Part shown: positions 24,482-29,481 of the stretch, in pieces
Layout of the letters: each line of letters opens with the position of its first letter
Position numbering within the stretch: position 1 is the stretch's first letter
Origin: Bacillota bacterium
GTDB lineage: Bacteria; Bacillota_I; Bacilli_A; RF39; UBA660
DNA length: 64,000 nucleotides
NCBI GenBank assembly: GCA_015059335.1
Contig: SVAP01000004.1
Location: 20,258-84,257 of the forward strand
Direction of reading: 5' to 3'
Notes under the pieces: model-generated
The model's input: the letters and a program-made list of their open reading frames with translations, nothing else
Told to the model about the DNA's origin: nothing
Databases searched by the model: none
Translations under genes and position numbers: made by a program

Positions 24482-25354
24482 ATGTTTAAAACTCAAAAAT
24501 ATGATATTAAAAATTTTTATGTTGGAGAATTGTATATATCTACTAGAATAAATAGACCGTTAGGAACACCTGACAAGGAGATAACAAAAGAAAATAAAAT
24601 TAAATATGATATACAAAACAAAACAACAATGAATGGTGCGATTAGTATAAACGATCATTTTCATTTAAGTAAGAATAATAGATGGTATAATGGATTTCTA
24701 ACAATTTTTTACAAAATAAATAATAATTATATATGTCTACATAATGGAAATACTTATAGATTAAATAGCGAAGATTTTTGTGAAAATTTATTTAGATTAG
24801 ATAGTCTTTTACCAAAAATCAGTTATAATTGTCCTAAAGAAATAAGTAACAAAGCTGCACTTAGAATGTTTAAACAATTATTTGATATAGAATACGAATA
24901 TAAAATAGAAAAATTTTATACCGGTGAGTCATATAAATTAGATGACTTTTATGTTGGTAATTTGGCTCTTTGTTGCAAAAGTAATTCTAAAGAATTAGAA
25001 GAGAGAAGAAGTAAAAATATCAATACACCACAAAAGTATATGTTAAATAAAAGTGATGCATATTTATCATCTATATCAGGAACTATTGCTGATGAAAATA
25101 ATGTTGAATATGATTATTTACACTTTTATACATTATTTTTAAAACAAAAAAAAGGATTGTATAATTTACACAATTTCCAAGTATATAATTCTGGTATATT
25201 AGATAAAGAACATTTCAACAATTATAAACTAAATGAAAGTTATTATGATTGGATGGTACCGTTAAGAGAAGTGTTAGAAGAAAATAAAATTAAATATGAT
25301 TTAGATAATATAAATATTCCAAAAGCACTTAAATTATATAGGAAAATTAAATAA
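24482..25354 (+). CDS. Hypothetical protein with internally duplicated domain
   Basis: Two halves begin YDIKNFYVGELY / YKLDDFYVGNLA and share TxFxK..x.LHN. Confidence 0.75.
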   Translation: MFKTQKYDIKNFYVGELYISTRINRPLGTPDKEITKENKIKYDIQNKTTMNGAISINDHFHLSKNNRWYNGFLTIFYKINNNYICLHNGNTYRLNSEDFCENLFRLDSLLPKISYNCPKEISNKAALRMFKQLFDIEYEYKIEKFYTGESYKLDDFYVGNLALCCKSNSKELEERRSKNINTPQKYMLNKSDAYLSSISGTIADENNVEYDYLHFYTLFLKQKKGLYNLHNFQVYNSGILDKEHFNNYKLNESYYDWMVPLREVLEENKIKYDLDNINIPKALKLYRKIK

Positions 25355-25379
25355 GATTAGACAGGTGGAGATTTAATTT

Positions 25380-25580
25380 ATGACAAAAAAGAATAATGGA
25401 AATTTTAGCTTTTATGCTATTCCATGTAATAAACCTTTTGTTATACCATCAGGATTTTTAACAGGAGAAAGAAAAAGACAAGTTGAACTAAATCACAAAA
25501 AATTTCTTGAGAAGATGAATCAAATAAGTGAAGAAAAAGAGCATACACTTAAGAAAACTATAAATCAAAATAAAAGATAA
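25380..25580 (+). CDS. Small hypothetical protein (66 aa)
   Basis: RBS AGGTGGAG; basic C-terminus. Confidence 0.6.
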   Translation: MTKKNNGNFSFYAIPCNKPFVIPSGFLTGERKRQVELNHKKFLEKMNQISEEKEHTLKKTINQNKR

Positions 25581-25681
25581 TTCTAACCATTATATAAAAT
25601 TATAAATAACTATTATAGTGATATAAACATAATAACAATTCTATTATTGTTAAAAATTTGTTTTTATGTTATAATGAATAT

Positions 25682-25795
25682 GTCAAGGAAACTTGCATAA
25701 AATAAAAAAGGAACATTCAATATTGCAGTATTGAGTGTTGCCATAGAAATGGTTATCACCTAATTCAAAGCTGAGTTAGGTGATTTTCTTTTTAT
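25682..25795 (+). ncRNA. Candidate type I antitoxin antisense RNA (~110 nt)
   Basis: Promoter TTGTTA-17-(TG)TATAAT at 25647-25675; terminator ATCACCTAA/TTAGGTGAT plus T-tract; antisense to the 3' UTR of the toxin mRNA. Confidence 0.65.
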
Positions 25796-25875
25796 ATTAA
25801 AACTATAAATAGTAATAATACTAATAGGAAGATAAGAATTACTAAAGCTAAGATTAAAAAATCTTTCTTGTTCAT
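25792..25875 (-). CDS. 27-aa hydrophobic peptide MNKKDFLILALVILIFLLVLLLFIVLI, candidate type I toxin
   Basis: Strong RBS GGGAGG, single TM helix, own promoter and terminator (25742-25703); absent from the ORF track. Confidence 0.75.
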   Translation of the reverse strand: MNKKDFLILALVILIFLLVLLLFIVLI

Positions 25876-25944
25876 TTTACCGCCTCCCTTCATCAAGAAG
25901 TTTGGCAATCACCCAACTATTGAATATTCCTATAATTATTATAT

Positions 25945-25958
25945 CAAACATTTGTTCT
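25945..25958 (-). promoter_or_regulatory. LexA/DinR (Cheo)-like box in the toxin promoter spacer
   Basis: AGAACAAATGTTTG fits GAAC-RNRY-GTTY, inside TTGTGT-17-(TG)TATAAT on the minus strand. Confidence 0.6.
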
Positions 25959-26049
25959 TGACACAATAACTTATAGTTAATTTTTTAAAACAAATCTAAA
26001 ACCGGGATTTGTTTTTTTTCTTGACAATTAATTTGTTGTGATGTATTAT

Positions 26050-26069
26050 TGTATTAGTGATGTAATACA
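26050..26069 (+). promoter_or_regulatory. YtrA-type GntR operator
   Basis: TGTATTA-N6-TAATACA palindrome immediately downstream of TTGACA-17-TATTAT. Confidence 0.7.
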
Positions 26070-26088
26070 ATAATAGAAAGGATATAAT

Positions 26089-26454
26089 ATGAATTTTGAA
26101 TTTGATAATAATCTTCCAATATATATACAACTAGTTGAACAATTAAAAATGTATATAATATCAGGAAGAATAAAACCAGGTGAAAGATTACCATCAGTTA
26201 GAGATTTAGCTCTGCAGTCAAAAGTTAATCCAAATACAATGCAAAAGGCATTAACAGAATTAGAAGATGTAGGTTTAATTTATACAGAGAGAACTAATGG
26301 TAAGTTTGTTACAATTGATAAAAAACTAATAGAAAAATATAAAAAAGAATATGCTAAAGAATTATCCGATAGATATTTTTTGAGTATGAATAATATTGGT
26401 TACAATAATAAAGAAGCTATTGAATATTTAGAAAAATTAGGAGGAGACAATTAA
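26089..26454 (+). CDS. GntR family (YtrA-like) transcriptional regulator
   Basis: PIYIQL..PGERLPSVRDLA..VNPNTMQKA. Confidence 0.93.
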   Translation: MNFEFDNNLPIYIQLVEQLKMYIISGRIKPGERLPSVRDLALQSKVNPNTMQKALTELEDVGLIYTERTNGKFVTIDKKLIEKYKKEYAKELSDRYFLSMNNIGYNNKEAIEYLEKLGGDN

Positions 26455-27149
26455 TGGAATTATTAGAATGTATTAATCTAGAAAAAAGTTTTGGAAATAA
26501 AAAAATACTTAAAAATATAAATTTAAAAATACCTAGAGGTAAGATTATTGGACTTCTTGGTAAAAATGGTACTGGTAAATCTACTCTTATTAAAATTATA
26601 AATGATTTATTAACTCCAACATCTGGTAAAGTATTAGTGAATGGTAAAGAAATTGGTGTAGAGAGTAAGAAAATTATTTCTTATTTGCCAGAAAGAACAT
26701 ATTTAGATAAATCTATGACAGTTGATAAAGTAATTAATTATTTTGAAGAATTTTATGATAATTTTGATTCTAAAAAAGCTAGAAAATTACTTAAGGATTT
26801 GGGTCTTGATACCACACAAAAATTATCTAAAATGAGTAAGGGTATGCAAGAAAAGGTTCAATTGGTTCTTGTTATGTCAAGAAAAGCAGATTTATATATT
26901 TTAGATGAACCATTGGGTGGTGTAGATCCAGCTACTCGTGATTATATTTTAGATACAATACTTAGTAATTTTAATGAGGGAGCAAGTGTTATTATTTCGA
27001 CACATTTAATTTCTGATGTAGAAAGAATTTTAGATGAGGTAATATTTATTGATAAAGGTAAAATTATACTTACTTCTGATTCTGATGAACTTAGAAAAAA
27101 AGAAAATGGATCAATTGATGAAATATTTAGGAGGATGTTCAAATGTTAA
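26454..27149 (+). CDS. ABC transporter ATP-binding protein
   Basis: GKNGTGKST, MSKGM, LDEPLGG, STH. Confidence 0.95.
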   Translation: MELLECINLEKSFGNKKILKNINLKIPRGKIIGLLGKNGTGKSTLIKIINDLLTPTSGKVLVNGKEIGVESKKIISYLPERTYLDKSMTVDKVINYFEEFYDNFDSKKARKLLKDLGLDTTQKLSKMSKGMQEKVQLVLVMSRKADLYILDEPLGGVDPATRDYILDTILSNFNEGASVIISTHLISDVERILDEVIFIDKGKIILTSDSDELRKKENGSIDEIFRRMFKC

Positions 27150-29327: not shown

Positions 29328-29356
29328 TTGACACAGGTACATTTGTTCGCTATAAT
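29328..29356 (+). promoter_or_regulatory. Consensus sigmaA promoter with LexA-like box in the spacer
   Basis: TTGACA-17-TATAAT; the spacer holds GGTACATTTGTTCG (reverse complement CGAACAAATGTACC). Confidence 0.65.
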
Positions 29357-29481
29357 TAATATACAGTAATGAGTAGTGTATAACAATCGTAAATATTGTA
29401 ATTTTACTGGTACAATATTTTAAATTTATGTTATAATTGAGTAATGCGTTTTTTAGCATTACATGAAAGGAAGTAATCAAG

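Follow-up and report, generated by a model that had tools for sequence, protein, structure and literature searches.

The gene-free gap at positions 25640-25980 of the window (i.e., the whole 64,000-nt stretch of DNA that was analysed) raises the question of what, if anything, is encoded there. The gap is flanked by a 66-aa open reading frame (ORF) on the plus strand, which ends at 25580, and by an operon for a GntR-type regulator and an ABC transporter, which starts at 26089; obg is found a few kb upstream of the gap. The assembly comprises 1.30 Mb with a GC content of 25 % and is 89.7 % complete. The gap is the location of a cassette of ~330 bp (25647-25975) with two convergent promoters and an unannotated gene pair, i.e., a minus-strand, hydrophobic 27-codon ORF with a Shine-Dalgarno (SD) sequence and a plus-strand gene for an RNA of ~110 nt that faces this ORF. 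As discussed below, the cassette, which belongs to a family not described before, is probably a type I toxin-antitoxin module under repression by LexA. We infer that both strands are transcribed, that the peptide is toxic, that LexA binds the toxin promoter and that the module has a role in persistence or defence; the transcript ends, the toxin and the antisense RNA are predictions. The features, in window coordinates, are the following:

25938..25966, minus strand: toxin promoter, with a TTGTGT -35 element (25966-25961), a 17-nt spacer and an extended -10 element, TGaTATAAT (25946-25938).
25945..25958, minus strand: LexA-type operator AGAACAAATGTTTG, within the promoter spacer and abutting the -10 element; it overlaps the spacer and the extended -10.
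25700..25931, minus strand: predicted toxin mRNA of ~230 nt, the ends of which follow from the positions of promoter and terminator; homologues from 32 copies were aligned.
25903..25931, minus strand: fold-back 5' arm AGGAAUAUUCAAUAGUUGGGUGAUUGCCA, i.e., the first 29 nt, predicted to pair with 25743-25709 in helices of 14, 8 and 6 bp.
25883..25888, minus strand: SD sequence GGGAGG, located 7 nt upstream of the ATG; in the alignment, GGAGG is almost invariant.
25792..25875, minus strand: 27-codon ORF MNKKDFLILALVILIFLLVLLLFIVLI plus stop (ATG at 25875, TAA at 25794-25792), predicted to encode a toxin with a single transmembrane helix.
25755..25784, minus strand: stem-loop within the 3' UTR of the toxin mRNA, complementary to the antitoxin terminator.
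25700..25743, minus strand: toxin terminator, a bulged hairpin (25742-25710) followed by U6, the bases of which double as the fold-back 3' arm.
25647..25675, plus strand: antitoxin promoter, TTGTTA-17-TATAAT with an upstream TG; 10/12 match with the TG in a promoter scan.
25682..25794, plus strand: predicted antisense RNA of ~112 nt, aligned in 34 copies and described by a covariance model.
25755..25794, plus strand: antitoxin intrinsic terminator, a 13-bp stem (25755-25784) and a T-run, TTTTCTTTTT; it ends at the toxin stop codon.

The first-pass annotation had assigned a promoter, a ribosome-binding site, a 27-aa ORF and a terminator to the minus strand, all of which are found where it placed them. 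It had also proposed a plus-strand promoter and terminator that would yield an antisense RNA of ~110 nt; both elements are present and the predicted product is ~112 nt in length. The convergent layout with overlapping 3' ends, which it had likened to that of txpA/RatA and bsrG/SR4, was recovered as well, with an overlap at ~25700-25794.

The cassette is part of a family, which made a comparative analysis possible. A second intact copy (G000:C8:328982-329307), which is 83 % identical, carries the same box and encodes the peptide MNKKDFLILSLVIIIFLLLFLLFIVLI, is found in the same genome, adjoining the genes for tRNA-Arg and tRNA-Leu, and a 5' remnant of the cassette is located at C8:221115-221237. 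A BLAST search over 61 related genomes gave matches in 37, many of which harbor several full-length copies. The copies are scattered, often beside tRNA or tmRNA genes, some are arranged in tandem arrays with a spacing of ~358 bp, and near-identical copies are found in different genera. The relatives are metagenome-assembled genomes labelled as uncultured Bacilli, Tenericutes or Mycoplasmatota (e.g., Candidatus Pelethosoma) from human, rabbit, chicken and ruminant guts. With the covariance model of the antisense RNA, hits were obtained in 16 of 35 sampled genomes from the same taxonomic family, with up to 11 copies per genome of ~1.2 Mb, as opposed to 0 of 266 genomes that represent other families of the class. 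These distributions indicate that the cassette is restricted to a single family of uncultured gut Bacilli/Mycoplasmatota with small genomes of 25 % GC. The comparisons below are based on aligned sets of 36 copies of the cassette, 32 mRNAs and 34 antisense RNAs.

Searches of existing collections did not connect the cassette to any known family. The matches in Rfam (E <= 10, positions 25000-26600) were chance matches only, with scores far under the gathering scores, and scans of seven family peptides against Pfam and NCBIfam gave nothing near the cut-offs, the best being HokA at 12.4 bits vs a cut-off of 89. A BLAST search against phage and plasmid records gave no match, and neither the conserved 5' UTR nor the antitoxin 5' module was found in viral contigs by exact-pattern scans.

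A simple promoter scan is uninformative in this AT-rich DNA (10 sites vs 9.7 expected), and it missed both the TTGTGT promoter, where only 3 of the 6 positions of the weak -35 element match, and the bulged toxin terminator, which forms a hairpin of modest stability when folded alone (-8.9 kcal/mol). What makes the promoter and terminator elements credible is not the scan but their in-register conservation across 36 copies, as seen for the TTG...TATAAT elements of the toxin promoter. In the relatives, conservation within the cassette is highest at the antitoxin promoter (at least 90 % identity), even beside divergent toxins, and the antitoxin terminator is the sole one obtained from a scan of the kilobase, vs 0.2 expected.

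The predicted peptide is composed of a charged head, MNKKD, followed by 21 hydrophobic residues. In 25 of the 36 copies the ORF is exactly 27 codons in length, in the others it ranges from 24 to 29 codons, and a few are broken; residues K3, K4, D5, I15, L17, L18, L21, L22 and F23 are invariant. Pairwise differences at codon positions 1, 2 and 3 number 2633, 980 and 2970, respectively, i.e., the second position is the most conserved, which is the pattern expected for hydrophobic NUN codons that are kept while L, I, V and F interchange. The pattern indicates that the small ORF is under protein-coding constraint. The ORF list also holds a longer, TTG-started form of the same frame. In exact look-ups the 27-, 34- and 38-aa forms of the peptide were all absent from a collection of 15 billion proteins; this absence fits, because an 84-nt ORF is believed to fall under the length limit that gene callers usually apply.

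The SD sequence is predicted to be occluded in the full-length mRNA, where GGGAG pairs with CUUCC at 25831-25827, inside the ORF, and its mean unpaired probability is 0.13. Across the family, sequestration is achieved in two ways, i.e., with CUUCC within the ORF in one subgroup and with CCUUC just upstream in the other.

The most conspicuous property of the toxin mRNA is the predicted pairing of its 5' and 3' ends. The minimum free energy (MFE) of the transcript 25931..25700 is -64.9 kcal/mol, vs -39.7 ± 4.0 kcal/mol for shuffled sequences (z -6.27), and none of the 200 shuffles was as good. Position A25931, the predicted toxin start, is also the first paired base of the fold-back, and the 3' arm is the terminator hairpin opened, where both halves of the hairpin are used. 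Alternative pairing of this kind between the toxin 5' UTR and 3' end had been proposed in the first-pass annotation, and the pairs it described are exactly those of the MFE fold. Long-range 5'-3' pairs are found in the MFE structures of each of the 32 mRNAs (13-31 pairs between the first 32 and the last ~60 nt), including divergent copies with differing arm sequences. In an alignment-free comparison, cognate arms gave -33.0 vs -26.9 kcal/mol for non-cognate arms (permutation p <= 5e-5) and -10.9 kcal/mol for shuffled arms. In the 32-mRNA alignment, 85 % of the cells in the 28 fold-back pairs are standard pairs vs 39-47 % when the partner is slid, and compensatory changes are observed in 16 fold-back pairs vs 9.2 ± 1.6 in shuffles (0/500 as good). 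The mutually exclusive terminator hairpin is conserved too, with 80.6 % of the cells paired and 6 compensatory pairs. Furthermore, owing to its G-U pairs the fold-back has a higher stability on the toxin strand, as compared with the complementary strand, in 32/32 copies; this bias rules out a DNA-level inverted repeat. The fold-back, which covaries and is strand-specific across the homologous loci, is in other words selected at the RNA level, as judged from these comparisons.

Over ~90 nt, from the stop codon of the toxin to its terminator, the antisense RNA and the toxin 3' UTR are perfectly complementary, and the antisense RNA is itself predicted to be highly structured (MFE -37.5 kcal/mol, z -6.29). 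The 3' UTR stem-loop of the toxin mRNA remains exposed in the fold-back form and shows compensatory pairs (alignment columns 188-198/210-220); it is the likely first contact site for the antisense RNA according to the structural model. Taken together, the locus combines a gene for a small hydrophobic peptide, which has its own SD sequence and shows coding constraint, with an antisense RNA gene whose product would pair with the toxin mRNA, the latter at the level of sequence only, and this type I layout is kept as a unit in dozens of copies.

The LexA-type box was described in the first-pass annotation as GAAC-AAAT-GTTT within the spacer of the toxin promoter, and this core is present at 25957-25946. 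The genome encodes LexA (TIGR00498, 235.9 bits), the ORF of which is located at G000:C8:298177-298791. The AT-rich genome contains 35 strict matches to GAAC-N4-GTTY, and the intergenic ones are found at lexA, recA and a Bro-N/dinD-like gene; the corresponding operators are CGAACAATTGTTTG, found twice in the divergent promoter region of lexA, CGAACAAACGTTTG at recA and CGAACAGATGTTTG at the dinD-like gene, and the box of the toxin promoter has the very form of these operators. The promoter of the latter, TTGATT-ACCGAACAGATGTTTGA-TATAAT, has the same geometry as the toxin promoter. About 2.6 M genome positions were scored with a 14-nt matrix built solely from the lexA-proximal operators of 39 related genomes; the two toxin promoters ranked third and fourth at 20.0 bits, after lexA (22.1 bits, twice) and before the dinD-like gene (19.3 bits) and recA (18.4 bits), where the right half of the matrix partly reflects the -35 element that overlaps the lexA operators. 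In one of the relatives (L096), moreover, the lexA operator has exactly the sequence of a 16-mer from the toxin promoter, AAGAACAAATGTTTGA.

Within the family, a box with a score of 15 bits or more is found in 12 of the 36 copies, which represent six genera; in all of them it has the same offset, directly next to the -10 element, and retains its half-sites while the N4 varies (AAAT, ATTT, AGAT, AAAC or GAAT). The presence of lexA in the genome and the conservation of the box had been named as the points on which the SOS reading would turn. The former was found, while the box is in register in only about one third of the copies, such that SOS control as originally proposed fits a subset of the family, including both copies of the present genome, and not all members. 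Because two thirds of the family have no LexA box, SOS control is not family-defining; the distribution of the box indicates that it is a property of that subset. On a tree based solely on the transcribed region, the box-bearing copies cluster (0/500 shuffles as low) and at least 4-5 changes of state are required, which implies that promoters have been lost or swapped repeatedly.

Three other explanations of the locus need to be considered, the most radical of which is that the cassette is a MITE-like mobile element, where the terminal complementarity is a DNA inverted repeat and the ORF and the RNAs are incidental. A multi-copy unit of ~330 bp with complementary ends, which is often found beside tRNA or tmRNA genes and for which near-identical copies occur in different genera, has the appearance of such an element. 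However, the complementarity depends on G-U pairs, with the toxin strand favored in 32/32 copies, the helices begin exactly at the predicted transcript ends, the homology runs past both arms into the two promoters, the ORF length is kept with the second codon position conserved, and no match is found in the phage, plasmid or viral collections. The strand asymmetry and the coding signature led us to reject this explanation, which is highly improbable. A more conservative alternative is that the peptide is an SOS-induced small membrane regulator, e.g., a division inhibitor, the level of which is merely tuned by the antisense RNA. Models for such a regulator are SidA from Caulobacter (29 aa) and the staphylococcal SosA, and a single-helix peptide of the right size with predicted LexA control would qualify; the match of one family peptide to the SosA model, at 7.2 bits, is far under the cut-off of 60. 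Gram-positive division inhibitors are usually encoded divergently from lexA, and in the present genome this position, behind LexA boxes, is occupied by a separate 50-aa transmembrane ORF. A regulator would also not be expected to be multi-copy (up to 11 per 1.2-Mb genome), in tandem arrays and beside tRNA/tmRNA genes, nor to have most of its copies without a LexA box. Moreover, the cassette is predicted to have both a dedicated cis-antisense RNA and a locked mRNA, as is typical of type I toxins. We therefore regard a regulatory peptide as unlikely.

The third alternative leaves the toxin-antitoxin cassette as it is and concerns the box, which could be a chance occurrence or a relic that does not bind LexA, the promoter being constitutive or otherwise controlled. 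The motif is short, with its 35 strict matches in an AT-rich genome, many family members do without it, and a conserved inverted repeat located immediately upstream, TTAACTATAAGTTAT, could bind another factor. On the other hand, among the 2.6 M positions scored with the 14-nt matrix only lexA outscores the box, which is present in both copies of the genome; the 12 box-bearing copies, from six genera, have conserved half-sites around a variable N4, always abutting the -10 element, and the geometry is identical to that of the dinD-like SOS promoter. That the box does not bind LexA thus appears unlikely. The reading in which the cassette is a type I toxin-antitoxin module, repressed by LexA at this locus, is the one used below.

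According to this reading, in an undamaged cell LexA would block the toxin promoter, while the constitutively synthesized antisense RNA would mop up any leaky mRNA. The antisense RNA would first form a kissing contact with the exposed 3' UTR stem-loop; since it competes with the mRNA 5' end for the same bases, it would then displace this end from the 3' end. The outcome would be a duplex of ~90 bp, a substrate for RNase III, as well as an unprotected 5' end, open to RNase J, and the message would be destroyed. Upon DNA damage, RecA-driven cleavage of LexA would lead to a surge in toxin mRNA, to levels in excess of the antisense RNA. Translation of this closed, stable mRNA would eventually follow, and the peptide would enter the membrane, where, like TisB in E. 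coli, it may cause depolarisation and growth arrest or death.

The displacement step was modelled by blocking the 3' overlap of the mRNA, which freed the 5' end in 32/32 copies, with an increase in the unpaired probability from 0.07 to 0.57. The genome encodes RNase III (246.8 bits) and two RNase J paralogues (594.6 and 482.2 bits). The best-supported model, which is an inference from these calculations, is that the antisense RNA and the mRNA 5' end compete for the 3' segment and that this competition would trigger decay. Two other modes of action were considered. A translation block as that exerted by SR4 is not supported, i.e., modelled antisense binding tightened the sequestration of the SD in just 16 of 32 copies. 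Pairing in trans of the Fst/SprA1 style was rejected, with a mean z of +0.33 for the antitoxin 5' module against the translation start and inconsistent sites; the lack of pairing between this module and the translation start makes a par- or SprA1-type mechanism unlikely.

A more speculative extension, which we consider possible rather than probable, is that the cassette is a three-way RNA switch and, being modular, links several stress inputs to one toxin family. Here, the antitoxin would mimic the structure of the mRNA 5' end, the common target of the two being the 3' segment/terminator, and it would unlock the self-protected mRNA for RNase III and RNase J without blocking the ribosome. The modularity is suggested by a comparison of the copies, where one antitoxin promoter and 5' hairpin appear to be combined with two or more unrelated toxins (27 aa and 17 aa), and by the repeated exchange of the toxin promoter noted above.

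How does the cassette relate to characterized type I systems? The systems bsrG/SR4, bsrE/SR5, txpA/RatA and yonT/SR6 are found in B. subtilis (PMC3834814, PMC3531473, PMC5848175) and share with the predicted architecture of the cassette the convergent orientation, an antisense RNA of ~100 nt over the 3' end of the toxin mRNA and an SD sequence within a stem. The predicted contact between the antitoxin terminator loop and the toxin 3' loop resembles the first contact in bsrG/SR4, RNase III-dependent decay is known for the B. subtilis systems and a gene for RNase III is present here, and the degradation logic of txpA/RatA and bsrG/SR4 (PMC3531473, PMC3834814) matches the proposed decay model. 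The cassette also fits the T1TAdb scheme, where an antisense RNA on the 3' side is the layout of the Gram-positive families (PMC8594479). In contrast, there is no sequence similarity between the cassette and the B. subtilis systems, i.e., Rfam, Pfam and NCBIfam gave no credible match to TxpA/RatA or BsrG/SR4, and the cassette is not on a prophage. Unlike in those systems, the overlap halts at the stop codon without entering the ORF, the toxin is shorter (27 vs 30-59 aa), the mRNA 5' end is predicted to pair with the segment targeted by the antitoxin, and a LexA-type operator is present.

[quoted passage not shown] Toxins of the tisB/dinQ type are, as predicted for the cassette peptide, single-helix membrane peptides (27-29 residues), and in tisB-type systems the full-length mRNA is translationally inert, to which the occluded mRNA of the cassette may be likened. 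These systems are, however, proteobacterial with an E. coli-type LexA box and have no sequence similarity to the cassette, and their antitoxins are encoded upstream, do not overlap with the toxin gene and act at the 5' region, whereas the antitoxin of the cassette is convergent and overlaps the 3' UTR. The reviews consulted here (PMC11951105, PMC8309996, PMC5848175) name E. coli as the only source of type I toxins under LexA control.

The par locus of pAD1 (fst/RNA II) and the Fst/Ldr family (PMC7472228) also have convergent promoters. In fst RNA I an intramolecular helix, the upstream helix, sequesters the extreme 5' end and stabilises the mRNA (PMC7472228); similarly, the fold-back of the cassette starts from the predicted +1, with an unpaired probability of 0.07 for the first 12 nt. 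The decay model proposed above joins a protective helix of this type to the degradation logic of txpA/RatA and bsrG/SR4. A stem-loop that hides the SD and an RNA-RNA contact that begins at complementary terminator loops (PMC7472228) are further likenesses. The PXXXG motif and the charged C-terminal tail of Fst (PMC7472228) are absent from the cassette peptide, i.e., the 25 aligned 27-codon peptides contain no Pro or Gly, except for a single Pro in one copy, and the C-terminus is hydrophobic or has a single Lys. Repeats of the DRa/DRb type as in Fst were not found in the cassette, where the overlap is ~90 nt with two separate terminators, while fst has one shared terminator. Finally, hok/sok and aapA1/IsoA1 (PMC6733600) have in common with the cassette a long-distance 5'-3' lock and an inactive, stable toxin mRNA. 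In these systems the antisense RNA targets the 5' region and trimming at the 3' end activates the mRNA (PMC6733600), whereas the antisense RNA of the cassette would target the 3' arm itself, and trimming would, unlike in hok/sok, remove this target. The cassette is therefore filed as a new family on the basis of these sequence comparisons, with known principles in a new combination.

From the above discussion, it emerges that a reduced-genome, uncultured gut lineage harbors a well-supported new family, which offers a compact and testable model of how an antisense RNA that binds the 3' end may control an mRNA closed by pairing of its 5' and 3' ends. The present locus appears to be the first LexA-controlled type I system beyond the E. 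coli examples covered in the reviews. It also provides a hint that DNA damage, caused by, e.g., antibiotics or phage, might trigger dormancy or death in these gut bacteria.

A second toxin family, with a 17-aa peptide (MTNREKSQFIIILLLFL), was found in a relative of the same genus, and has an architecture in common with the predicted LexA-repressed 27-aa cassette of the window. The antitoxin promoter and 5' hairpin are nearly alike in the two families, and the 17-aa family has a 5'-3' fold-back of its own, i.e., pairing of the first nucleotides of the toxin mRNA with its 3' end. In this sister genome, the 17-aa cassette is located directly downstream of obg, at a spot syntenic with the site of the 27-aa cassette, while the window harbors here the 27-aa cassette and ~3 kb of extra genes instead. 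In the source genome (G000), the 17-aa family is left only as two toxin-less remnants, which may be orphan antitoxins.

L024:1470-1880 (G002:C13), 17-aa toxin locus
G000:C8:173632-173748, toxin-less remnant
G000:C8:36910-37025, toxin-less remnant

The surroundings of the 27-aa toxin promoter contain the following elements.

Window 25966-25980, minus strand, inverted repeat TTAACT-ATA-AGTTAT, overlapping the toxin -35
Window 25986-26020, plus strand, terminator-like hairpin AAAACAAATC...GATTTGTTTT and T-run
Window 26021-26049, gntR promoter, near-consensus TTGACA-17-TATTAT

Copies of both toxin families from the same genus (L040, L044, L055 and L024) have this inverted repeat conserved on their upstream side, and it may serve as an UP-like element or as a second operator. 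The terminator-like hairpin stands between the toxin and gntR promoters and probably insulates the GntR/ABC operon. At the toxin-distal end of many copies (L002, L011, L015, L044, L010, L012, L041, L046 and L052), the antitoxin -35 is found within the loop of a covarying hairpin, e.g., AAAACGACTT-GTCAAA-AAGTCGTTTT, followed on both strands by a T-run; the copy in the window is without this hairpin, which might have a regulatory function or act as a back-up terminator in both directions.

Two more, weaker LexA-type boxes are found in the window, each within a promoter-like site, and three LexA boxes precede an ORF divergent from lexA.

Window 29328-29462, weaker box upstream of pyruvate formate-lyase
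Window ~49120 (G000:C13:69377), weaker box TTGACTAT-AGAACAAATGTATG-TTACTAT, 13.7 bits
G000:C8 ~298915-299067, outside the window, ORF of 50 aa, single transmembrane segment (MLSNVYEENKGIIIFLLMFVIFAYVAVIRVDH...)

This ORF, whose position matches that of YneA/SosA, is a candidate for an SOS inhibitor of cell division.

Several cassettes have a tRNA or tmRNA gene no more than a few tens of bases away (L002:1868-2033, L012:1098-1454, L020:1738-1814), and tandem arrays are found in other genomes (e.g., G279:C3:184239, 184597 and 184955). Because the transcribed regions of L009 (G028) and L010 (G014), from different genera, are almost identical (branch lengths ~0.03), while LexA proteins are only ~70 % identical between genera, the data suggest horizontal spread of the cassettes or very strong constraint.
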